Below, piece by piece: positions 43,773 to 53,824 of a stretch of DNA of 64,000 nt (within the stretch, counting starts at the first letter, position 1; each line of letters starts with the position of its first letter). The notes under the pieces are model-generated. The model was not told where the DNA came from and did no database searches. It was given only the letters and a program-made list of their open reading frames with translations. Source of the DNA: Clostridia bacterium (GTDB lineage: Bacteria > Bacillota > Clostridia > UMGS1883). Location of the stretch: NCBI GenBank assembly GCA_045661145.1, contig JAZRFC010000087.1, positions 4,431 to 68,430 on the forward strand. Reading direction: 5' to 3'. Both the position numbers and the translations under genes were made by a program.

Positions 43773-43847
43773 GCCCTCGTAGTAAAGCGGATATTACAAG
43801 CCCCTCCTAAGGGCTAGTCATCGGTTCGATTCCGGTCGGGGGTGCCA
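43773..43847 (+). tRNA. tRNA-Arg (anticodon CCT), CCA encoded
   Basis: Hand-folded cloverleaf. Acceptor GCCCTCG/CGGGGGT (G1-U72 and U5-G68 wobbles), D stem GTAA/TTAC, anticodon stem AGCCC/GGGCT with loop CTCCTAA, T arm ATCGG-TTCGATT-CCGGT, discriminator G plus CCA. Confidence 0.85.
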
Positions 43848-43899
43848 AAAGAGACAAACGCTTTTTATAACATAGTTATAATTATGTTTGTCTCTTTTT
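43848..43899 (+). terminator. Terminator-like hairpin after the tRNA
   Basis: AAAGAGACAAAC...GTTTGTCTCTTT 12-bp stem with a structured 26-nt loop, followed by TT. Confidence 0.55.
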
Positions 43900-44096
43900 C
43901 TATGCAAATTTAACATAAAAGGAGAATATGAATTAGCAGAATTGCTTAGGAAAATTTAGGTAGATGAACAAAATTTAATGAATAAAACATTACTATGATG
44001 ATGTTTTAAAATTGGATATTACAAATTTTGAGCACATTTTGAGTGAAATCAAGATGTGCTTTTTTTATTTTAAAAGTACAAAGGAGGAAACTTACA

Positions 44097-44489
44097 ATGA
44101 CAAATAGCGAAATTAGAACTACAAAAAACATCAAACTTAAGGAGGAAGATAAAATGATGAAATTGGATTTGTATGAATCAAGATTGTTTGGTAGAATTTG
44201 TTACGGGTTTGGTAGAGATGAAGACGGCTATGTTTACATCAAAGATGATGAAGCTAATGTGGTTAGAATGATTTATGACATGGCTATTAATGGTCACAGT
44301 TTGCAGAATATTCAGGCAGAATTGTATAACCGTGGCGTTAAATCACCATCAGGTAAAGATAAGTGGACAAGGGACGTTATTGATAAAACTATAAATAACA
44401 AAAAGTATTTAGCTTATATTATTTCATTCGAAAATTTCGTTGAAGCATCTATCGAAAAAGAATCTCGTTGCAGATACATCAGAAGTTAG
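44097..44489 (+). CDS. Stand-alone 'Recombinase' domain protein (serine-recombinase fragment lacking the catalytic resolvase domain)
   Basis: YGFGRDEDGYVYIKDDEANVVRMIYDMAINGHSLQNIQAELYNRGVKSPSGKDKWTRDVIDKTINNKKY matches the central domain of large serine recombinases. No S-catalytic N-domain. AAAGGAGG precedes ATG 44097. Confidence 0.6.
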   Translation: MTNSEIRTTKNIKLKEEDKMMKLDLYESRLFGRICYGFGRDEDGYVYIKDDEANVVRMIYDMAINGHSLQNIQAELYNRGVKSPSGKDKWTRDVIDKTINNKKYLAYIISFENFVEASIEKESRCRYIRS

Positions 44490-44552
44490 CCTGGGGACAG
44501 AATTGCTGATTTGTTATATAATTCTATTATTAAAGTGAAAGGAGAATTGGAT

Positions 44553-45128
44553 ATGGACAAATCAGCAATTCAAAATCAGCTAAGGTATATCATTGCAAAA
44601 GAGCAGTATATGAAGCCGCTACTGGAAAATGAAATTATAACTGAAGAGGTGTATAACGAAGTATTAGTAAATCTGTATGATGAATTTGAGGTCTGGAGGT
44701 ATAGCAGAATTCAAAATCCAAGTGTTGAATTTAGAAAGACGAAAAGAGAGACAAGAAACGATTTATTGGAGCAAAATCCAGGATATATTTCTTTAACAGA
44801 ATTAGCAAGAAGTAAACCACAAAAATCAACAGGTTACACTATTCAAATGTGGTTAAGAGATAGTGGAACCGTTGATTTTCTTTCTTTGTGGGAGAATAAG
44901 TACAATGAAAAATTTCTTCCTATTTCGGTAGAATTAAACACTTTAACACCGAAATTGTGGATAAAAGAAACAAATTCTATCGGAATTGTATCAAGGCAGG
45001 GAAAGAATGGAGGGACATATGCACATAAAGAAATAGCAATGCATTTTATGTGTTGGCTATCTGCAGAAATGATGCTAAATGTTATAGAGAAATACTTGGA
45101 GGTAATGAATGATGAGAAAGATAACTGA
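44553..45128 (+). CDS. KilA-N domain-containing protein
   Basis: C-terminal half ISLTELAR...IQMWLRDSGTVDFLSLWE...TPKLWIKETNSIGIVSRQGKNGGTYAHKEIAMHFMCWLSAEM follows the KilA-N pattern. Confidence 0.65.
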   Translation: MDKSAIQNQLRYIIAKEQYMKPLLENEIITEEVYNEVLVNLYDEFEVWRYSRIQNPSVEFRKTKRETRNDLLEQNPGYISLTELARSKPQKSTGYTIQMWLRDSGTVDFLSLWENKYNEKFLPISVELNTLTPKLWIKETNSIGIVSRQGKNGGTYAHKEIAMHFMCWLSAEMMLNVIEKYLEVMNDEKDN

Positions 45129-46650
45129 AATTCCAGCTACAATTTTCAAACAGTCAACAGACATAAATAAACAATATAGAGTAGCGGCATACTGTAGGGT
45201 CAGTACAGATAAAGAAGAACAAGAGAATAGTCTGGAAAATCAAATTACATATTACAAAAACAAAATTGAGAATACACCTAATTGGACTTTAGTTGATATT
45301 TTTGCTGATTTTGGCATAAGCGGAATGAATGATAAAAACAGAATTGAATTTCAAAGAATGATTGAGATGTGTAATAAAGGAAAAATAGATTTGATTATCA
45401 CAAAGTCAATTTCACGATTTGCAAGAAATACGGTTGATTGTCTAACACATGTGAGAAAACTAAAAGCGAACAATATTGGAGTCATTTTTGAAAAGGAAAG
45501 TATAAATACACTTGATGCAGTTAGTGAAACATTTCTAACATGGTTTAGTGCTTTTGCTCAAGCTGAAAGTGAGTCACTTAGCCAAAATGTAACCAGAGGT
45601 AAAAGGATGGGGTATAAGGAAGGAAAGTTTACTTTTCCTCCATTCTTATATGGATATGATAGAGGTGATGGAATAACTCCTGTTATAATTCCAGAACAGG
45701 CAGCAATCGTTCGCAAAATCTTTCATATGTACTTGGAGGGAAATTCCATAGGCGGAATTAGGAAATGGCTTAACGATAACAACATAGAAACAACAAAGGG
45801 TATAGGTGAATGGAACAAATCTACTGTGTCTGGAATATTAAAAAATGAAAAATATAAAGGTGATGTACTCCTGCAGAAAAGTTATACGGTAGATTATCTC
45901 ACAAAAACAATAGCAAGAAACAAAGGTGAGGTAACACAATATTATATTGAAAATAACCATGAAGGAATTGTGTCACGGAAAATATTCGATATGGTGCAGG
46001 ATGAAATGCAAAGAAGGGCAAGTTTATACAGTAGTAAAACTCCAAGCAAATATAGTTCTAAATATGCTCTCACAGGCAAGGTGATCTGCGGAGAATGTGG
46101 TGCTAAGTACAGAAGAGTTACATGGTCACGAAATGGCAAAAAGAAAATTGTATGGAGATGTACAGAAAGGCTCACTAATGGCACTAAGAACTGTAAGAAT
46201 TCACCAACCATACTTGAAGAAGACTTGCATAATGAAATACTTAACAATTTAAAAGAGATATTGCCTATGTCAGACGATATAACTCAAAAAGTTAAAAATG
46301 AGATTGAGATTGTTTTAATGAAAAAAGATGATAATAATCCACAAGTTATCCAACGTAAAATTAAAAACTTTGAAAAAGAGGCTGAGGTTTTGAGGAATAT
46401 TTTAAAAGAAACAGAGGATAAAGAGTTTTATATCGAAAAAATTAAAAAAATAGAAAATGAATTATTGAAACTAAACAAAGTAAATAGTTTTGCTTCAGTA
46501 AAAGAATCTTATGATTTATTAAATCAAATTAAAAAGATTGTTGACAATAAGGAATTGAATATGGACACATATTTCGACATAGTGATAAGTAAAATAGTTC
46601 AATATATACTAGTATATAGAACAGGGAAAATAAATGTTATTTATGATTAA
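45109..46650 (+). CDS. Large serine recombinase (resolvase N-domain + recombinase domain + zinc ribbon + coiled coil)
   Basis: YRVAAYCRVSTDKEEQENSLENQ (catalytic Ser), ITKSISRFARN, recombinase domain (PPFLYGYD...EQAAIVRKIF), CGECGAKYRR...WRC zinc ribbon. 513 aa. Confidence 0.9.
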   Translation: MMRKITEIPATIFKQSTDINKQYRVAAYCRVSTDKEEQENSLENQITYYKNKIENTPNWTLVDIFADFGISGMNDKNRIEFQRMIEMCNKGKIDLIITKSISRFARNTVDCLTHVRKLKANNIGVIFEKESINTLDAVSETFLTWFSAFAQAESESLSQNVTRGKRMGYKEGKFTFPPFLYGYDRGDGITPVIIPEQAAIVRKIFHMYLEGNSIGGIRKWLNDNNIETTKGIGEWNKSTVSGILKNEKYKGDVLLQKSYTVDYLTKTIARNKGEVTQYYIENNHEGIVSRKIFDMVQDEMQRRASLYSSKTPSKYSSKYALTGKVICGECGAKYRRVTWSRNGKKKIVWRCTERLTNGTKNCKNSPTILEEDLHNEILNNLKEILPMSDDITQKVKNEIEIVLMKKDDNNPQVIQRKIKNFEKEAEVLRNILKETEDKEFYIEKIKKIENELLKLNKVNSFASVKESYDLLNQIKKIVDNKELNMDTYFDIVISKIVQYILVYRTGKINVIYD

Positions 46651-46718
46651 ATTGATACTTATTGTATGTTTACTTATTGTGTTCAAGGTGATATACTATA
46701 ATATGAGGTGATATATCT

Positions 46719-46925
46719 GTGGATATTATTAAAGTGTTTTCACTAAATGTGAGGAAATACCGAATTCAAAAAGGATGGTCTCAGGAAGAATTGGCTGAGA
46801 AATCTGATTTACATAGAACATATATTAGTGCGGTAGAATGCGAGAGACGAAGTATTGCTTTAGAAAATATACAGAAGCTAGCGGATGCACTTGAAATAGA
46901 TACATATAAATTGTTTATGGAATAA
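46719..46925 (+). CDS. XRE-family helix-turn-helix transcriptional regulator (68 aa)
   Basis: NVRKYRIQKGWSQEELAEKSDLHRTYISAVECERRSIALENIQKLADAL is the canonical HTH_3 motif. GTG start preceded by GAGGTGA. Confidence 0.85.
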   Translation: MDIIKVFSLNVRKYRIQKGWSQEELAEKSDLHRTYISAVECERRSIALENIQKLADALEIDTYKLFME

Positions 46926-46958
46926 GATATAATTTATTTTTTTGAAAGGAGGATCGAT

Positions 46959-47807
46959 ATGAAAAACAATACTGTGTTTAATAGATTGTTTACGCAATAT
47001 TCTATCAATGATTTGCTTCAGGGTAATGATAATCAAGTATATAAGGCTGTTATTAAAAGAGTATTACAGGATCCTCATTCTAAAAATAATGGTGAAATTA
47101 TAAGTGAGATATATTCTTACATGGGAAAGAATTATCGAAATGAGTATTTTTATCAAAATACCCTTATTAATAAATTGTTATTAGGAAAACATAGTGTAAA
47201 TACAACTACTGCATTAACGCAGATACCTATAAATAAATCAAAAGCAGACTTTATTCTAATAAATGGAAAAGCGGTAGTGTATGAGATAAAAACAGAATTA
47301 GATAGTTTTGTTAGATTGGAAACACAGATAGATGATTACTATAAAGCTTTTAGTGATGTTTGTGTTGTTACCTGTGAAGAAAATTATGATAAATTAAATT
47401 CGATTCTTCAAGGAACTAATGTTGGTATTTGCATATTAACTAAAAGAAACACCCTTAATTTTATAAAAAATCCTATTTCGGATTATAGTAAGATTAGTCA
47501 TGAAATGCTGTTTAAAATCTTACATAAATGTGAATTTGAGAATATAGTAAATGAATATTTTGGCGCATTGCCGACTACGACTCCTGTTTTTTATTATGAT
47601 GAATGTTACAAAAGCTTTGTAAGAATACCTATAATGGAAGCGTATAGTGCTACTTTAAAGCAGTTAAAAAAGAGGAATAAGATATTGAAGGAAGAATTTA
47701 AAAAAGTACCATATGAATTAAAGTCGTTAATGTATTTTTATAGTGAATATGATAATAAATATAAAACATTGCAGAAGTTTTTAAATGAAAATTATGGGAG
47801 GGTCTAA
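46959..47807 (+). CDS. PD-(D/E)xK nuclease-fold-like protein, resembles the 'sce7726 family'
   Basis: 282 aa. Candidate D-x(11)-E-x-K core in SKADFILINGKAVVYEIKTELD (D97, E109, K111). Preceded by GAAAGGAGG. Family name recalled from NCBI naming, not verified. Confidence 0.5.
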   Translation: MKNNTVFNRLFTQYSINDLLQGNDNQVYKAVIKRVLQDPHSKNNGEIISEIYSYMGKNYRNEYFYQNTLINKLLLGKHSVNTTTALTQIPINKSKADFILINGKAVVYEIKTELDSFVRLETQIDDYYKAFSDVCVVTCEENYDKLNSILQGTNVGICILTKRNTLNFIKNPISDYSKISHEMLFKILHKCEFENIVNEYFGALPTTTPVFYYDECYKSFVRIPIMEAYSATLKQLKKRNKILKEEFKKVPYELKSLMYFYSEYDNKYKTLQKFLNENYGRV

Positions 47808-47810
47808 ATT

Positions 47811-48752
47811 ATGTATTTTCCTTATTTGAGAGGCAGACAATATGAGTTGCTTGCATTAAGAGAATTGGTTGAAAAAGATGCAATAAGTAAAAAGATCATA
47901 CCAATTATAGAACCGGTTAAGCTTTCATCCACCCTTTTAAAAACGATGGATGCTTTTATTAAAAACAATAGACAAATGATCGTAATATGCAATCCTGCGG
48001 TAGGGAACTTTGTCACAGATATGAAAACGGATGATAAGAATCAAGAGCAATTTCTTTCGTTGTTGAAAAGTGAAGAAATAATTAAAGGGCATATCATGAA
48101 GAAAATGTCTGCACAATTTATTGATATTTGGAAAAATAAAATGGGAGTGAACAAAGAGGAATGGGTAGTACTTAATAACAAGCGAGAGTTTGTGGATGAA
48201 TATTCTAATATTTTTGCAGAACATCCTCCAAAATTTGTTTTAATACCCGACGAAAGCAACTTTAGAAGAAAAACCAGAGAAGGGAATAATAGAGTTTTAT
48301 TAGCAGATAGATTTAATAAACTAGACAGAAATTCAGATTATTCAAAAAATGAAGATGAGTTTTACTCTGATGATCATTTATATTACGACATTGATGGTTA
48401 TAGAGGTTTTTCGGATTATTCCATAATTGGAAATGATTATTTAGAATCTGGTTTTGCGCCATATGCAGTAGCAATCCATATCATTTATTTAAAACAGGAT
48501 GATAGTTTGTGGGTGCATCATTTTGTTTCAGATTCAAATGACGATATTCAAAACCCTGCAAAAAAATTTTATGAGGCGGTTAGTAAACTTGCAATTTGGT
48601 GCGAAACTAATAATATCGATCTTACAATAGGATTAAAAACATTTATTGAACACTATAATAATCAAACATATCCAGGATTAGGAAGTGTTAAAAAATTGTC
48701 GTTAATGCACCACATAGAATTATTAAGCAAGCTTCTTGATGGGGTGAAGTGA
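47811..48752 (+). CDS. Beta-protein-like / 'sce7725 family'-like protein
   Basis: 313 aa. The N-terminus MYFPYLRGRQYELLALREL matches my recollection of the Beta_protein (P4 beta) and sce7725 families. 3-nt gap from the upstream gene. Confidence 0.5.
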   Translation: MYFPYLRGRQYELLALRELVEKDAISKKIIPIIEPVKLSSTLLKTMDAFIKNNRQMIVICNPAVGNFVTDMKTDDKNQEQFLSLLKSEEIIKGHIMKKMSAQFIDIWKNKMGVNKEEWVVLNNKREFVDEYSNIFAEHPPKFVLIPDESNFRRKTREGNNRVLLADRFNKLDRNSDYSKNEDEFYSDDHLYYDIDGYRGFSDYSIIGNDYLESGFAPYAVAIHIIYLKQDDSLWVHHFVSDSNDDIQNPAKKFYEAVSKLAIWCETNNIDLTIGLKTFIEHYNNQTYPGLGSVKKLSLMHHIELLSKLLDGVK

Positions 48753-49825
48753 TGAATTGTTGTGAAAAGTGTTTTAAGGATATTGAAATCAAAGCCATCA
48801 TAAAGACGCAAGGAAAAAAAGGAAATTGTGATTTTTGTGGGAGCAAAAATACATATATTTCAAATGTTTCAGAGAGTTTGGAAATAAAAGAAAACTTTGA
48901 ACGGTTAATAGATGTATATTCGTCAGAAAGTAGTAGACCAGAGGCATTTCCAAAAGAAAAAATGGATTTGTTAAAAAATATTCTGGCATATAAATGGAAT
49001 ATTTTTAATTTACAACCAGATGCTATATATAGATTTTTGACAACGCTTCTTCCAGAAAGATATATGGAACAACCTGAAATTTTTGACAATCCAGTAGGTA
49101 TATTCGAAGAGATTAATGATGATTATTTGGGAGAGTATTCAATTTTAGGAAAACATCAATGGGAAGATTTCGTTACAGAAATAAAAGAAAAAAATAGATT
49201 CCATACCAATATAATAAATAAGGATGTTTTATCAAAAGTTTTACAAGCCTCATTTAAGGTATATAAAAAGGGAACAATATTTTATAGAGCAAGAACTTGT
49301 CAGGATGAAAGAGGGTATACTAAAAATGAGATGTGGGCGCCACCACCACAAATGGCCTCTAGTGGAAGAGCGAACCCTGAAGGAATTAGTTGTTTGTATT
49401 TGGCTGATTCTATTGACACAACCTTGCACGAAATCAGAGCTGGTATATACGATTATGTAACTGTTGGTAGGTTTGTTTTACAAAGAGATATAGAAGTTGT
49501 TAATTTAGCAGATATAGATAAGATAAGTCCATTCAAGGATTTAGATATTAGCTTGATTGCTGCGAACATTCCTCATTTAATTAAGATCGGACAAAACATA
49601 GCTAAGCCATTAAGAAGATATGATAGTGCTTTAGATTATTTGCCTACGCAGTATATATGTGATTATATTAAGAGTGAAGGGTTTTCAGGTATAGAGTATA
49701 AAAGTACGATGCTAAATGCTGGAACTAATTATGCGATATTTAATGAGAATCTATTTAAGTGCACCAAGACGGAGGTTTACGAGGTGCAATCATTAAACTA
49801 TGGCTATCAATCGGTTCTAAAGTAA
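48752..49825 (+). CDS. RES-domain protein (putative NAD+-targeting toxin) with N-terminal CxxC...CxxC zinc ribbon (HEPN/RES-NTD1-like)
   Basis: N-terminus CCEKCF...GNCDFCG. RES core FYRAR...SGRANPEGISCLYLADSIDTTLHEI (Arg, Glu) and YLPTQYICDYIKSEGFSGIEYKSTM...NYAIFN (Ser). ATGA start/stop overlap with the upstream gene. Confidence 0.8.
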   Translation: MNCCEKCFKDIEIKAIIKTQGKKGNCDFCGSKNTYISNVSESLEIKENFERLIDVYSSESSRPEAFPKEKMDLLKNILAYKWNIFNLQPDAIYRFLTTLLPERYMEQPEIFDNPVGIFEEINDDYLGEYSILGKHQWEDFVTEIKEKNRFHTNIINKDVLSKVLQASFKVYKKGTIFYRARTCQDERGYTKNEMWAPPPQMASSGRANPEGISCLYLADSIDTTLHEIRAGIYDYVTVGRFVLQRDIEVVNLADIDKISPFKDLDISLIAANIPHLIKIGQNIAKPLRRYDSALDYLPTQYICDYIKSEGFSGIEYKSTMLNAGTNYAIFNENLFKCTKTEVYEVQSLNYGYQSVLK

Positions 49826-49877
49826 GCATATAATCTTTACAAATGGAATAACCCAATACATAAGTTAATATTTACAG

Positions 49878-49914
49878 AATCCGACATGCCTCTCAATGAT
49901 GACCATGTCGGGTT
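49878..49914 (+). terminator. Hairpin terminator candidate after the RES gene
   Basis: AATCCGACATG...CATGTCGGGTT stem with a 15-nt loop, followed by ATTT. Confidence 0.45.
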
Positions 49915-49937
49915 ATTTACTAACTAATTATAGAAAT

Positions 49938-50201
49938 ATCACCGATTTTGTCACCGATAATGTCACCAATAGAAAAAACTGTCACCGTTAGGGTGACAGA
50001 TAAGGATAGCTTCTTAAAAAATAGATTAAAGATTGGTGAACCCCAATTTGGACCCCAAAATGAACCCTAAAATTGTATGTGTTGTTGATAAAATTTAAAA
50101 GGTTTACAAGTGAACTGAGGCTTGTTGCATCGTTGGAGATTTTATAGTAAACTTTCATGTAAAGGAATACAACAACAAAATGTCCTATTAAATGTCCCAA
50201 T
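49938..50201. repeat. Three clusters of 12-nt-period tandem repeats in a non-coding gap
   Basis: Set A 49938-49973 (ATCACCGATTTT/GTCACCGATAAT/GTCACCAATAGA). Hairpin CTGTCACC-gttag-GGTGACAG at 49979-49999. Set B 50038-50073 (GAACCCCAATTT/GGACCCCAAAAT/GAACCCTAAAAT). Set C 50178-50201 (AAATGTCCTATT/AAATGTCCCAAT). Confidence 0.7.
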
Positions 50202-50421
50202 AAAATTTGGATAATTACTGAGAGATGGACTCTTGTTTGTGGATGTTACTCATAAGGAGATTGATCGTGTCATGCAAGTTGCTTTTTTAATGAAATTTGA
50301 CTACGACAAGTGAAATAGCTTCGCTGTGTAATACATTTCGTGTACGAAATATTGCTTTTCAATATGAAAAGGCGAAATTTATTCACATTTTTTGAAAGAA
50401 AAATATTTTATAATCCGCAGG

Positions 50422-50455
50422 ATTATTTCATATCAAACAAGTTGATATTTCATTA
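50422..50455 (+). repeat. 34-nt direct repeat, copy 1 (upstream of the Pycsar-like module)
   Basis: ATTATTTCATATCAAACAAGTTGATATTTCATTA is 31/34 identical to 53582-53615. Contains the palindrome ATATCAA..TTGATAT. Confidence 0.8.
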
Positions 50456-50570
50456 AATGTTTGAAATATAGTTTACCTTTCCTACATAAACAGAATAATT
50501 TGAATATTAAGAAGCTTTTTCGCAATTTTATTATTTTTCACAATTGACTTTTTTTGAGTTTTATATTAAA

Positions 50571-50867
50571 ATGAGAATAGAGGTGAAGGATGTGGATAAA
50601 TTAAATACTGTAAAGAAAATAATATCATATGTAAAACCCAAAATAGATTTATATCGAAGTTTTCCAGAGAAAGAGGAAGATATCATTCAATCTCTAACAA
50701 TAATTTTTGATATTAACTCAGAATGTTGGCCTAGAATAATTAAAGACGGAGTTTTTGTAGAATCTTTTAAAAAAGATATGGGGAAAGCTAGAATGACAGC
50801 TTTAGAAAAGTTACTGTATAAATTAGATGAGCAACATTATAAAAGAATCATGTTTATAAATGATTAA
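50571..50867 (+). CDS. Hypothetical protein (about 92-99 aa), first gene of the Pycsar-like module
   Basis: ORF downstream of TTGACT(50544)-17 nt-TAAAAT(50567). Start is ambiguous (ATG 50571, or GTG 50592 with GAGGTGA SD). No recognisable domain. Confidence 0.4.
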   Translation: MRIEVKDVDKLNTVKKIISYVKPKIDLYRSFPEKEEDIIQSLTIIFDINSECWPRIIKDGVFVESFKKDMGKARMTALEKLLYKLDEQHYKRIMFIND

Positions 50868-50963
50868 AAAAAGACACATACATGTTGTTTTAAGCATATA
50901 ATTATAAAGAGAGCACAGAACTAGGTTTAAGCATAGCACCGAGGTTCGTGAAAGGTTGAGATT

Positions 50964-51464
50964 ATGTTAAATACAATGATAATATATATAAATAAACTTG
51001 CTACAGAAGCCAGAAGAGGATGTGAGCAAGAAAATGAGTTTTTAAAAGGTATGCGCAATCTTCAAGAAAATGAAATGCAGCAAGTTGTTGAATCGTTTGG
51101 CGGCAAATTGGAACAAATATCTGATGATTCAATGGAGAGTAATGCACTAATAAGCGGAACACAAGATAATTTTGTTATTAAATATAAAAATTATCATACT
51201 ATAGACATTCTACATGAGTTAGGGCACGCCTTTTTACATTTAGAAAAAAAGAAAAAAGAAAAACCCTTAGATGGAGATTATGGTTTAGATGAGACTTCTG
51301 CATCAGTTTTTGCAAGGGCTTTTTTGATGCCAGAGTATTTATTTTACAATGATGTTATTGAAAATTCTATAAATAGAATATGTGATATTCAGCACATTGC
51401 AGATATGTATAGTACTACATGTTCAGATGTAATAACTCGTGGTCGAGAATTAAATTTGTGGTAG
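50964..51464 (+). CDS. ImmA/IrrE-family (M78, DUF955) zinc metallopeptidase
   Basis: HEXXH motif in ILHELGHAFLH, followed by SASVFARAFLMPEYLF (the family's E..AN.FA..LLMP-like block). Confidence 0.75.
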   Translation: MLNTMIIYINKLATEARRGCEQENEFLKGMRNLQENEMQQVVESFGGKLEQISDDSMESNALISGTQDNFVIKYKNYHTIDILHELGHAFLHLEKKKKEKPLDGDYGLDETSASVFARAFLMPEYLFYNDVIENSINRICDIQHIADMYSTTCSDVITRGRELNLW

Positions 51465-51478
51465 GTTAGGGGATACAA

Positions 51479-52981
51479 ATGATTAAAATTACGGATATAC
51501 GAGAGAAGGCAAAATCTTATTCTGCTAAATACTATAGGAATTTATATGAGTATTCTGAAGAAAAATTATATATTTTTTTATCTATTGATATATGTGGATC
51601 TACTATTCTAAAAGCAAACAAGGAAAATAGATGGTTTGAAATAAATCGTATTTTATATAACTATGATTTTAATAGAATGAACTTCTGGAAATTAAATGGA
51701 GATGAAGTCCTTTATTACGAAGAATTTAATAACATAAGTCATTTAATAGAAATTATCAAAGAGGCATATAAACATATTAAAAATATGGAGTCTGCAATAA
51801 ATAGTAAAGAAAATAATTTTACAAATGAAATTGTGGGACTTAAGGGTACACTTTGGATAGCAAGAACTGATAAAAGCGATTCAAAAGATTTTGATAGTAT
51901 TCGATTAAAAAATGAAATAATTACGGAATACATAGGTTTAAGTGTTGATGAAGGATTTAGACTCACTCAAAAAGCATCCAAAAGTAAATTAGTAATTGAT
52001 CCTAAAATAGTACATTTATTAAATCAGTCATATTTAGTTTCAGAAAACCCTGATTTGAATTCCTCATTAAAAAAAATGGCATGTAAAGTGAGTAGCAAGG
52101 ATTATATAGATATTTTTACAAACATACGCTTTGTTGGATATACAAAACTGAAGGGGATATGGAAGGATAGAGGATATCCTGTTTTTTGGTATTTTGAAAA
52201 TAAAGATACAGATTATGAATATGATGAACATCTAGATCAAATGTATGTTGGAGACAAAATTAAAAGATGTTATTCTTTTTCGGATGAAAAAGTAAATATT
52301 CATATGGATTTGAATAAAATTTTTGAAAATGTCTCTTTGTCTAATGAAATCAAAAAAATCCTTGCAATTGCAAGTAAAAGTAAGCCACATAAATCAATTG
52401 ACAGTTTTGCTAGGTTATATTATTCTTGTGTTTGTGTAAATACTCATACAAATCATGTGTTGATTGCTAAACGAAGCGAAAAAAGACATCATTTAAAAAA
52501 TGTTTGGGAGTTTGGGATTTCTAAACATACATCGACACCAATTTCTATAGCAGAGGTCATAAAAAACGATTATAAAAATGAATTTGGTATAGATATTGAA
52601 GTTGTTACTGATGGAGAAAAGGAAAATAATATAATACCAATGCATTTTTGTACGATTTATCGCAAAGGGACAAAGCATAATAATATATTATGTTTTGCTA
52701 AAATAGTTGGTGGAGAGTATAAAGATGAAGACTTGATAAAGATTATAAGAAAAAATACTGATAAAAAAAGATATATTGATTTTAAGTTTATTGGTAAAAA
52801 TGATACTCAAAAGTTTGAGACAATTTCCATAGAAGATATTGAAAAAGATTCCATTATGGCAACAAATAACAAATCGAAAGCCTTTGGTGAAAACAGGGCA
52901 GTTATGTATTTTGCACAATCTGTCTCTGCTGCAATAAATTATTTCCAAGATGCTAGGAAGGAGAAAAAATGGTATGAATGA
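51479..52981 (+). CDS. Class III nucleotidyl cyclase (PycC-like) fused to a C-terminal degenerate Nudix-like (AGS-C-like) domain
   Basis: Cyclase blocks FLSIDICGST (metal Asp37), KLNGDEVLYY (Asp75), LKGTLWIA, GLSVDEGFRLTQKA, GYTKLKGIWKDRGYPVFWY. C-terminal aa 312-415: VLIAKRSEKRHHLKNVWEFG...NDYKNEFGI (Nudix-fold-like, catalytic Glu residues mostly absent). Confidence 0.75.
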   Translation: MIKITDIREKAKSYSAKYYRNLYEYSEEKLYIFLSIDICGSTILKANKENRWFEINRILYNYDFNRMNFWKLNGDEVLYYEEFNNISHLIEIIKEAYKHIKNMESAINSKENNFTNEIVGLKGTLWIARTDKSDSKDFDSIRLKNEIITEYIGLSVDEGFRLTQKASKSKLVIDPKIVHLLNQSYLVSENPDLNSSLKKMACKVSSKDYIDIFTNIRFVGYTKLKGIWKDRGYPVFWYFENKDTDYEYDEHLDQMYVGDKIKRCYSFSDEKVNIHMDLNKIFENVSLSNEIKKILAIASKSKPHKSIDSFARLYYSCVCVNTHTNHVLIAKRSEKRHHLKNVWEFGISKHTSTPISIAEVIKNDYKNEFGIDIEVVTDGEKENNIIPMHFCTIYRKGTKHNNILCFAKIVGGEYKDEDLIKIIRKNTDKKRYIDFKFIGKNDTQKFETISIEDIEKDSIMATNNKSKAFGENRAVMYFAQSVSAAINYFQDARKEKKWYE

Positions 52982-53501
52982 AAAACAAACGTTGAGAGAT
53001 ACACTTAATGTTATCAATGAATGGACAAGTAACTGTGATGTTAAGGTTTCTATAATATTGGCGATTTTTGGCGTGGTTTTTTCTGCATTTTTTTCATCAG
53101 ATTATGTAAAAATTTTTATTAAAATAATTAAAAAATGTTTTGATGATGTATCGTTATTTGAATGGATATACATAATTGCATTATTGGCTATTTTACTTGC
53201 AATCATAATAGGTTTTTGGAAACTAATAAGAGTATTGTTGCCAACAATAAATACGGATAAAGAATCTCTAATGTTTTTTGGTGGAATTTCAAAATATAAA
53301 ACACCAGATGAGTATTATAATAAGGTTAAAAATTATTCTGATGACAAGGTTTGTGAAGATTTGATATATCAAATTTATGCGGCCGCAAAGATTTGCACAC
53401 AAAAATTTAAGAATCAAAAAATTGGGCTTTACTGTCTTACCTTTGGAAGCTTTATTTTTGTGATTTGGTGTGTTATAGGATGTTTTGTGTTTTATATGTA
53501 A
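52974..53501 (+). CDS. Small 3-TM membrane effector, PycTM (DUF5706)-like
   Basis: 175 aa. TM segments VSIILAIFGVVFSAFF, IYIIALLAILLAIIIGFW and LYCLTFGSFIFVIWCVIGCFVF. Soluble block SLMFFGGISKYKTPDEYY...IYQIYAAAKICTQKFK resembles the Pycsar effector family. 8-nt overlap with the cyclase gene. Confidence 0.65.
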   Translation: MNEKQTLRDTLNVINEWTSNCDVKVSIILAIFGVVFSAFFSSDYVKIFIKIIKKCFDDVSLFEWIYIIALLAILLAIIIGFWKLIRVLLPTINTDKESLMFFGGISKYKTPDEYYNKVKNYSDDKVCEDLIYQIYAAAKICTQKFKNQKIGLYCLTFGSFIFVIWCVIGCFVFYM

Positions 53502-53581
53502 ATAGGATAAATTGTTAGGTACCTATTTCGTACAAGAGAGCCAGAAAACATTGGTTTTATATTTCGCAATTTACGAAGTAA

Positions 53582-53615
53582 ATTATTTTATATCAACGAA
53601 GTTGATATTTCATTA
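53582..53615 (+). repeat. 34-nt direct repeat, copy 2 (downstream of the Pycsar-like module)
   Basis: ATTATTTTATATCAACGAAGTTGATATTTCATTA with perfect 8-bp palindrome arms ATATCAAC/GTTGATAT. Confidence 0.8.
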
Positions 53616-53616
53616 T

Positions 53617-53644
53617 GAAAATGCCAGACAGTGTTTGGCATTTT
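53617..53644 (+). terminator. Terminator-like hairpin
   Basis: AAAATGCCAGA-cagtg-TTTGGCATTTT. Confidence 0.5.
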
Positions 53645-53676
53645 ATGTTGCATCTATTATGAACGTGAAAGCCACC

Positions 53677-53706
53677 AAAAAAGCAAGTCGTAAGGCTTGC
53701 TTTTTT
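53677..53706 (+). terminator. Rho-independent terminator near the right edge of the island
   Basis: AAGCAAG-tcgtaagg-CTTGCTT followed by TTTT. Confidence 0.55.
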
Positions 53707-53824
53707 GTGTTCATACCATATAACTGCAAATAAAAAATATTATATCACCAATGAAATTACTTTTTTGTTATGTAAAAATTGCAATACTGAAAAAGGTGTG
53801 ATATAATAAAATTGGTGATGGATT

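Follow-up and report, generated by a model that had tools for sequence, protein, structure and literature searches.

An integrative element of Clostridia located exactly after the CCA end of a tRNA-Arg gene, with a large serine recombinase and two defence-like modules

Background

How does a segment of deviant composition come to lie exactly between a tRNA gene and the terminator of that gene, which enzyme placed it there, and what does it carry? These questions are raised by an AT-rich island in a 64,000-nucleotide stretch of DNA, called the window throughout this paper, from a Clostridia bacterium (GenBank assembly GCA_045661145.1, contig JAZRFC010000087.1). The island follows directly after tRNA-Arg(CCT), the sole tRNA of the window, and a preliminary description of the sequence had read it as a small integrative defence island with a serine-recombinase module and two stacked defence-like modules. 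The 3' ends of tRNA genes are known as classic targets of tyrosine integrases (Williams 2002 as cited in PMC12884075), and reviews attribute them to these enzymes, whereas for elements with serine recombinases insertion into the interior of genes, or at sites of low specificity, has been described (PMC5704250). An insertion exactly after the final CCA of a tRNA is unusual for a serine recombinase; we found no description of a serine recombinase using tRNA ends in the literature, an absence that is no proof.

Here, we compare the island with the same site in related genomes and with other elements that have the same ends. Our overall reading, which we regard as highly probable, is that of a large-serine-recombinase element which inserts after the CCA of a tRNA and carries two defence-type cargos. 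What is new are the exact ends, the membership in a family that targets tRNA ends, and a defence cassette that is missed by current models.

Results and discussion

The island has exact ends and is absent from some of the close relatives

An exact look-up of the 60-amino acid (aa) RpmF protein, encoded in the left flank, retrieved ten related loci, in which the RpmF sequence is identical and the flanks are 86-93% identical to those of the window; the adenine deaminase and the recombinase gave no match when looked up in the same way. (Loci from other genomes are labelled L001-L056; coordinates without such a label refer to the window.) In L005, L006 and L007 the site is empty, with rpmF and the tRNA followed directly by ade, which is the arrangement that the preliminary description had proposed to look for. 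The native terminator hairpin (CCAAAAAAGCAAGTCG...CTTGCTTTTTT), which adjoins the tRNA in L002, L003, L005 and L009, has been moved away from it by 9.8 kb in the window. Since the homology ends at 43847 and the native terminator resumes at 53675, the island extends exactly from 43848 to 53674 (9,827 bp), and sits between the 3' CCA of tRNA-Arg(CCT) and the terminator of the same tRNA, whose sequence is unchanged in the relatives, be the island present or not. The right end, earlier put at 53720 and held to be not precisely definable, is therefore at 53674. The identity common to both junctions comprises only GCCA (43844-47 and 53671-74), and family-wide only CCA; a long repeat of the 3' end of the tRNA is thus lacking, as stated earlier and as expected for a serine recombinase. 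The segment 43848-53674 is an integrative element with precise junctions, present in some and absent from other close relatives.

The composition of the island is in agreement with these limits. The G+C content is 0.297 over 43848-53674, compared to 0.414 for the remaining window, and every other 9.8-kb segment of the window has at least 0.398. Along the sequence, it falls from 0.42-0.47 in the flanks to 0.24-0.35 right after the tRNA and recovers near 53.8 kb, so that the sharp drop described earlier is real, but the flanks have 41-47% and not about 50%. The G+C content at third codon positions (GC3) also deviates from that of the host (0.239 in the island genes vs 0.369 in the flanking genes).

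The gap between the tRNA and ade is a hotspot with at least seven states among the relatives. At least five other fillings occur at this tRNA-Arg(CCT) site, with alternative inserts such as a PMI/ROK gene, a set of RbsD and a beta-lactamase-fold gene, and an AraC/EamA/GFO set. In L010 (8929-18928), the same site holds a relaxase-bearing island with AbiE, ApeA-HEPN and a large ATPase, whose genes encode HTH_36, NikA/MobC-like, relaxase, DUF6088 and AbiEii, ApeA-HEPN and DUF4236 proteins and a multi-AAA ATPase of >1,200 aa. The empty sites, the other fillings, the deviant composition and the annotation of both modules support the interpretation of the segment as an integrative defence island; the outcome named in advance as refuting it, a segment shared by all related strains and host-like in composition, is contradicted.

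The element belongs to a family that inserts at the ends of many tRNA genes

The left end of the island, a palindrome followed by a T-run (Table 1), was used to survey other genomes, one per species, and was found in 28 species genomes, all of them Clostridia. The palindrome (AAAGAGACAAAC...GTTTGTCTCTTT) with its T-run starts at the base after the CCA in every sister locus, at different tRNAs. There are 30 distinct 40-nucleotide (nt) arms upstream of the left end, and 29 of these are tRNA 3' ends, the remaining one being the right-end motif. The 29 informative left junctions all abut a tRNA CCA and span at least 15 anticodon species; the targets comprise tRNAs for Arg-CCT, Arg-CCG, Cys, Asn, Met (two genes), Thr, Leu (three), Lys (two), Gln and Tyr. 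The consensus of the 29 target arms is only GGTTCgA.TCc.....g.....CCA, i.e. the universal T-arm and CCA. The orientation of the insertion relative to the tRNA is constant (29/29), and the tRNA gene is undisrupted. At the other end, a 26-bp motif with the consensus TGCATCTATTATG(A/T)ACGT(G/A)AAA(G/T)CCA is present in every element whose end falls within the available sequence (L018, L019/20, L022, L025, L037, L044, L050 and L052), and is followed, locus by locus, by a different, unrelated terminator hairpin. The P and P' arms, as we call the right and the left end, are nearly identical across the copies, and the elements range in size from 1,353 to 9,827 bp.

Relatives of the recombinase with 70-95% identity reside in elements with the same left end. 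Those 88-96% identical to the enzyme of the window are accompanied by the same gene order (small Recombinase-domain protein, KilA-N, recombinase, helix-turn-helix (HTH), sce7726, sce7725, RES) in differing chromosomal contexts, adjacent to tRNA Cys-GCA, Asn-GTT or Met-CAT. At the DNA level, the backbone from 43845 to about 50285 is 90-94% identical in L019-L022, downstream of Cys, Asn and Met tRNAs; in L018, the non-coding stretch 49826-50285 of this backbone aligns at only 71%. The similarity of the recombinases does not follow the target tRNA: the enzyme of the window, located at Arg-CCT, shares 95% of its residues with an enzyme at Cys and 93% with an enzyme at Met, but only 78% with that at another Arg-CCT, and two enzymes both found at Asn tRNAs are only 70% identical. 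This pattern suggests generic recognition of tRNA gene ends. Hence, tRNA gene ends in general are the insertion sites of the family, and we strongly infer that one enzyme is promiscuous for many tRNAs.

Several members of the family depart from the typical layout. In L041/L052, the thirtieth arm mentioned above is the right-end motif fused to a left end, an attP-type junction within a chromosome contig. After this fusion, L052 (1394-7137) holds a 5.7-kb element with a trypsin-like protease and a dCMP/MafB19-type deaminase. The fusion in L052 indicates a tandem array and demonstrates accretion in tandem. A 1,353-bp mini-element after tRNA-Thr(CGT) in L025 (4500-5852) consists of both ends around one gene for a 366-aa RelA_SpoT-domain protein that is toxSAS/CapRel-like; it has no recombinase and may be a cassette moved in trans. 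A 3,791-bp element after tRNA-Arg(CCG) in L037, in which the small Recombinase-domain gene, KilA-N and RES are kept, the recombinase is missing and both ends are intact, is a deletion derivative. In L019 (7263-8737), a gene with the DUF1016/YhcG nuclease fold is found past the right end. After it come a further right-end motif, this one degenerate, and one more terminator hairpin, a pattern suggestive of an earlier insertion that has since decayed. This DUF1016 gene and a FokI-like gene in L022 were considered as cargo and rejected, as both lie beyond the right-end motif, outside the elements.

Table 1. Features of the island and of its borders in the window.
Feature	Position	Strand	Remarks
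tRNA-Arg(CCT), intact	43773..43847	+	ARAGORN; Rfam tRNA 54.7 bits
Left junction, attL core	43845-43847		tRNA 3' CCA
Left end, P' arm	43848..43905	+	52-nt near-perfect palindrome AAAGAGACAAACGC...GTTTGTCTCTTT, then T-run
Small Recombinase-domain protein	44097..44489	+	PF07508 2e-10; phrog_95 integrase 2e-17
KilA-N protein, 191 aa	44553..45128	+	PF04383 5e-14; PADLOC PDC-S22 1.9e-33; kept in sister elements
Large serine recombinase, 513 aa	45109..46650	+	PF00239, PF07508, PF13408
Xre-type HTH protein, 68 aa	46719..46925	+	HTH_3 3.6e-15; PADLOC 'control protein' 1.8e-17
sce7726 family protein	46959..47807	+	NF033832 1.9e-52; PADLOC 'cll' 1e-13
sce7725 family protein, 313 aa	47811..48752	+	NF033831 7e-110
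RES-domain protein, N-terminal Cys-rich region	48749..49825	+	PF08808 2.2e-17, 64 bits vs cut-off 23.2
Conserved non-coding end of shared backbone	49826..50285	.	TGTCACCGAT-type direct repeats
Variable cargo slot with Pycsar-like cassette	50286..53648	+	sister elements join backbone directly to right-end motif
ORF, 107 aa, doubtful	50544..50867	+	no Pfam/PADLOC match; not kept beside cassette in other loci
M78 (ImmA/IrrE-type) metallopeptidase, 166 aa	50964..51464	+	PF06114 4.5e-6; PADLOC capP 2.6e-9, RmrA 3.8e-10
Cyclase-NUDIX protein, 500 aa	51479..52981	+	AF2 pLDDT 82.5; Foldseek folds
PycTM-type transmembrane effector, 183 aa	52950..53501	+	PF18967 5.1e-11, 43.4 bits vs cut-off 27.2; PADLOC PycTM 8e-32
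Right-end motif, P arm, TGCATCTATTATGAACGTGAAAGCCA	53649..53674	+	its CCA = right junction, attR core
Native terminator hairpin of the tRNA, CCAAAAAAGCAAGTCGTAAGGCTTGCTTTTTT, host DNA	53675..53709	+	directly 3' of tRNA in L002, L003, L005, L009

The recombination module and a possible mechanism of insertion

In the loci with enough sequence, the genes for the small Recombinase-domain protein, the KilA-N protein and the large serine recombinase are found at fixed offsets from the left end, and the genes after the recombinase vary. Judged by its domains, the 513-aa protein is a complete large serine recombinase: PF00239 (Resolvase, 1.1e-32) covers residues 25-173, with the serine motif YCRVSTD read from the sequence, and is followed by PF07508 (Recombinase, 1.7e-24) and PF13408 (Zn_ribbon_recom, 2.9e-14). 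The preliminary description had recognized the enzyme and placed it at the tRNA-proximal end, where it is in fact the third gene from the tRNA. The small Recombinase-domain protein (about 112-130 aa) comprises just the first part of the 'Recombinase' DNA-binding domain and is 26% identical to residues 176-249 of the large recombinase; a GGAGG ribosome-binding site can be read in the sequence before its ATG at 44097. It is a candidate accessory or directionality factor. The possibility that this gene, initially delimited as a 148-aa 'Recombinase' ORF, is a pseudogene remnant was rejected, because it is conserved at a fixed offset in the sister elements. The KilA-N gene starts with ATG at 44553, the mechanically delimited ORF at 44511. 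Since KilA-N is part of a mobility module, and defence genes are always present in the elements concerned, PDC-S22 may be a mobility-module gene that was flagged as a defence candidate by association only. No close match to the recombination module was found in 50,697 phage records or in annotated plasmids.

In the mechanism that we propose, the recombinase would recombine attP (...GTGAAAGCCA/AAAGAGAC...) with a tRNA gene at its end, crossing over within the CCA, and it would recognize features common to all tRNA genes, namely the T-arm GGTTCGAnTCC and NCCA, and in addition the A-rich start of the terminator. Since CCA is not a palindrome, a crossover within it would account for the constant orientation as well as for the identity of 3 bp. 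The flanks past the right ends start with A-rich sequences (GAAAAAAGAC, AAAAAGAC, AAGAAAC) that resemble the element's own AAAGAGAC, as expected if both are half-sites. Following the insertion, the left hairpin of the element would terminate the tRNA transcript in place of the displaced terminator, and the tRNA gene would stay intact. The calculated RNA fold of this hairpin has -21.2 kcal/mol and z = -5.4, with a U-run after it; this stability and the U-run would make it able to replace the displaced terminator with the tRNA gene unharmed, and it probably does so. The small Recombinase-domain and KilA-N proteins could serve as accessory factors for the direction of recombination or for target choice.

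Such an enzyme may be compared with two known kinds of elements. With the low-specificity or 'multi-targeting' large serine recombinases, such as TnpX of Tn4451 (PMC5704250) and those described by Durrant et al. (PMC10083194), it shares the architecture and a very short att identity, here CCA; in contrast to them, its targets are not scattered, as 29/29 are tRNA gene 3' ends, used in one orientation and with the gene undisrupted. With the tRNA islands of tyrosine integrases, such as P4-like satellites and their defence hotspots (PMC9122126), the element shares the position adjacent to an intact tRNA and the variable defence cargo in a fixed slot. It differs from them by having a serine recombinase, by the lack of a duplicated tRNA segment beyond CCA, by insertion after the gene and not within it, and by the use of many tRNA species by one element family.

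A shared backbone with a RES-containing module and a variable slot

Both of the defence-like modules described earlier hold on annotation, but they are not equivalent: module 1 belongs to the backbone common to the closest sister elements, and only module 2 is cargo of the slot. The slot is empty in L019/L020 and L022, and metagenome contigs fuse position 50242 or 50112 straight to 53649. In L018, the slot is occupied by Abi_2, and an HD-domain gene is inserted after RES; in L052, the protease and the cytidine deaminase come immediately after the recombinase.

Module 1 begins with a 68-aa HTH protein that is 100% conserved in the closest sister elements and likely regulates the next three genes. 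The cII-like/sce7725/RES trio is found alone, with no recombinase, in L055/L056 ([Clostridium] scindens-type contigs), which indicates a unit in its own right. The sce7726 protein belongs to the phage P4 cII family (BLASTP vs P4 cII 2e-7; RefSeq calls P4 cII a 'sce7726 family protein'); its relatives carry PF26915 (Phage_P4_cII), and it has a D...ExK motif typical of PD-(D/E)xK nucleases. The AlphaFold2 (AF2) model of sce7725 is TIM-barrel-like (pLDDT 87.5), with only weak fold matches. The RES protein, in which HEPN_RES_NTD1 is below the threshold (0.006), is predicted to be a NAD+-directed toxin and the effector of the module. We found no description of the function of sce7725 or sce7726 in the literature, and this absence is no proof.

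By analogy, module 1 may be an abortive-infection system like gop-beta-cII of phage P4, with a RES toxin replacing Gop, and would likely work through NAD+-directed toxicity released on infection. Phage P4 also integrates next to a tRNA, as the carrier of this module does. The P4 locus confers protection from lambda and P1 and has the behaviour of a toxin-antitoxin locus (PMC9122126); its toxicity is triggered by a phage gene (10.1101/2023.04.06.535777). The similarity extends to the membership of sce7726 in the cII family and to the organization as a three-gene, toxin-type locus on a mobile element. The differences are that a RES-domain protein and no Gop counterpart occupies the toxin position, that sce7725 shares only an N-terminal motif with beta (PF14350; BLASTP 0.001, Pfam 0.24, hhalign probability 1.3%), and that the genes are co-directional, with the HTH gene first. 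RES domains are also known from RES-Xre toxin-antitoxin systems (MbcT, ParT, a Pseudomonas RES toxin). Module 1 resembles these by a RES domain above the Pfam cut-off and an Xre-type HTH in the same operon, and differs from them by two more conserved genes between HTH and RES and by the Cys-rich N-terminal extension of the RES protein.

The backbone ends with a non-coding stretch (49826-50285), in which three TGTCACCGAT-type direct repeats are located at 49937-50002. On the minus strand of this stretch there is a strong promoter-like site from 49954 to 49927 (11 of 12) and a terminator-like hairpin (49999-49979); the stretch could be an antisense RNA or a protein-binding array. In the slot, a 34-nt direct repeat (50422-50455 and 53582-53615, 91% identical), which is itself a small palindrome, brackets the cassette and may mark how it entered. 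A search with Rfam for other RNA motifs gave only sub-threshold matches to Gut-1, at 50288-50355 (+, 35.6 bits) and 50400-50459 (-, 33.6 bits), for which the gathering score is 50; they coincide with the point where the window departs from the sister backbone.

The island contains 11 ORFs in total, and not 10 credible genes as counted before; the credible ones are all on the + strand, as stated then, and one, of 107 aa, is doubtful. A 73-aa ORF (53512-53733) that spans the right junction was rejected as spurious.

A Pycsar-like cassette in the slot

The cassette of the window encodes an M78 peptidase, the HELGH motif of which is intact, followed by a 500-aa protein and a PycTM-type effector; the gene of the latter overlaps the end of the preceding one by 32 nt. 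In the AF2 model of the 500-aa protein, a divergent cyclase for which neither Pfam nor PADLOC gave any match, a class III nucleotidyl cyclase fold (approximately residues 1-240) is followed by a NUDIX fold (approximately residues 310-500). Foldseek matches it to CyaB, CyaC and Rv1900c with a probability of 1.0 (CyaB 7.5e-8, Rv1900c TMt 0.73) and to NUDT6 (TMt 0.64). The family motifs FxSxD...ST, GDE and DEGFR are invariant, as are the metal-binding D37 and D75. The Nudix box, as read from the sequence, is degenerate; a weak similarity to the NUDIX-like domain of MutY, which is non-catalytic, fits a binding role. An assignment of the C-terminal domain as AGS-C was considered and rejected, as AGS-C has been described as Ig-like (10.1101/2023.05.21.541620) and the model matches NUDIX folds.

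The cassette is conserved at a distance. M78, cyclase and PycTM (29-41% identity) remain neighbours in three contexts unrelated to each other, one of them beside a retron, and in a fourth context (L016/L017) M78 and cyclase occur with no PycTM called; the M78 gene is directly upstream of the cyclase throughout L011-L017. An exhaustive profile search yielded 1,739 representatives of the cyclase family at E<=1e-3 and 347 at E<=1e-30. It revealed the sensitivity limit of a word-indexed search, from which a rare family of 13 clusters had been deduced, and that notion was dropped. Ten distant members of the family gave no match to the PycC model or to Guanylate_cyc at E<=1. Beside one distant M78-cyclase-PycTM cassette, L015 (5804-10829) contains a retron-type reverse transcriptase and a PRTase-CE gene, and also a Guanylate_cyc gene paired with a radical SAM gene, possibly another system.

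Module 2 appears to be a Pycsar variant with three genes. Infection would cause the cyclase to produce a cyclic mononucleotide; sensing would fall to its NUDIX-fold domain and regulation to the M78 peptidase. On binding of the signal, PycTM would damage the membrane and halt the growth of the phage. CapH/CapP are regulators of CBASS, and the M78 peptidase matches the PADLOC model of CapP (Table 1); unlike in CapH/CapP, there is no HTH next to it in the window or in L011-L017, and the 107-aa ORF beside it has no HTH match. In the Pycsar-2 subclade, a bihelical domain, a cyclase and AGS-C always occur with a 3TM pJV1-spdB3/PycTM effector (10.64898/2026.08.12.744502). Module 2 has in common with Pycsar and Pycsar-2 the class III cyclase fold, the conserved metal-binding aspartates and an adjoining, translationally coupled PycTM; it differs by the lack of a PycC or Guanylate_cyc match, by the NUDIX-fold C-terminus in place of the Ig-like AGS-C, and by the M78 peptidase as a conserved third gene, which Pycsar-2 does not have.

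Alternative explanations

The wide range of targets could also be explained if each recombinase variant were strictly specific for one tRNA and many tRNAs were reached by rapid re-specialization. In favour of this possibility, classical large serine recombinases have a high site specificity, 5-30% of residues differ between the enzymes at different tRNAs, and we saw no genome in which two copies occupied different tRNAs. We nonetheless consider it improbable, since the P and P' arms hardly differ between the copies, enzymes of 93-95% identity serve Arg-CCT, Cys and Met whereas pairs at the same tRNA (Arg-CCT, Asn) have diverged to 78% and 70%, and the 29 target arms have only universal tRNA features in common. 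More doubtful still is the idea that the segment represents a satellite, or the decayed remnant of a prophage, in need of a helper phage, and not a self-sufficient integrative island: it would agree with the frequent occurrence of KilA-N proteins and large serine recombinases in temperate phages, with the lack of conjugation genes and with the matches of the cyclase to two PHROG families and of sce7725 to one, but genes for replication, packaging or a capsid are lacking, more than 20 genomes have elements of a conserved, compact layout of 1.4-9.8 kb between defined ends, and the phage records searched gave no close match to the recombination module. As to the cargo, both modules might be addiction (toxin-antitoxin) modules that stabilize the island and have no anti-phage function. 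RES is a known toxin domain with an Xre-type partner, the HTH and M78 proteins match NCBIfam/PADLOC repressor or antitoxin models, and P4 gop-beta behaves like a toxin-antitoxin pair (PMC9122126). Yet the slots of the sister elements contain classical abortive-infection genes (Abi_2, a RelA/SpoT toxSAS-type gene, protease and deaminase), and PycTM is known so far only as a defence effector (10.64898/2026.08.12.744502), which makes a pure addiction function unlikely; the two roles are not mutually exclusive.

The interpretation as a recombinase-driven element with two defence-type cargos is itself opposed by several observations. Neither an excised circle nor recombination was seen; the pattern for the attP junction was unmatched in metagenome and viral contigs, and the metagenome contigs aligned to the island gave no sign of excision, the runs carrying the element existing as contigs only. 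The P and P' arms have no obvious dyad symmetry by eye, and no transfer genes were found in the element. Solo left-end hairpins directly after a tRNA, followed by host genes, occur in L001 (10309-10370; PMI/ROK), L026 (rpoB region), L033 (RpiR/PHP/HAD) and L049 (thiM/thiE). They are not expected from precise excision by a serine recombinase, and may be deletion scars retained as terminators, or landing pads. In module 1, BLASTP, Pfam, hhalign and two fold searches do not tie sce7725 to P4 beta, the RES protein has no similarity to Gop, and the PADLOC gop model is unmatched; in module 2, the 500-aa protein matches neither PADLOC PycC nor Pfam Guanylate_cyc at E<=1.

The proposed promiscuity of the enzyme can be extended to a broader scheme, which we put forward tentatively, as one with a reasonable chance of being right but short of a conclusion: any CCA-encoding tRNA gene would be a landing site, and recombinase-less cassettes would be moved in trans, resulting in an integron-like exchange of defence genes together with tandem accretion as in L052. 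The attB of the recombinase, which might act together with the small Recombinase-domain and KilA-N proteins, would then be the universal end of a tRNA gene, comprising the T-arm, the acceptor strand, the encoded CCA and the A-rich start of the terminator, and a cassette that has both ends but no recombinase, like that of 1.35 kb around RelA/SpoT in L025, would be mobilized by a recombinase supplied from elsewhere.

Conclusions

The element described here is flanked by pta, ackA, yceD and rpmF on the left, and by ade (adenine deaminase), two small 2Fe-2S proteins and a hydrogenase-like PAS protein on the right; yceD, rpmF and ade were noted as core genes from the beginning. If the reading proposed above is true, a serine recombinase that uses the ends of many tRNA genes without damage to them would represent a new strategy of target choice; large serine recombinases are one-protein integration tools, and a landing site for such an enzyme could be available in most bacteria. 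The candidate PDC-S22 of PADLOC could be reread as a gene of the mobility module and not of defence, and the cII-like/sce7725/RES trio would widen the context of P4 cII. The M78-cyclase/NUDIX-PycTM cassette, whose cyclase is missed by current defence-finding models, would extend cyclic-mononucleotide defence to a sizeable family (the 347 representatives at E<=1e-30), with a new sensor-like domain and a peptidase partner.

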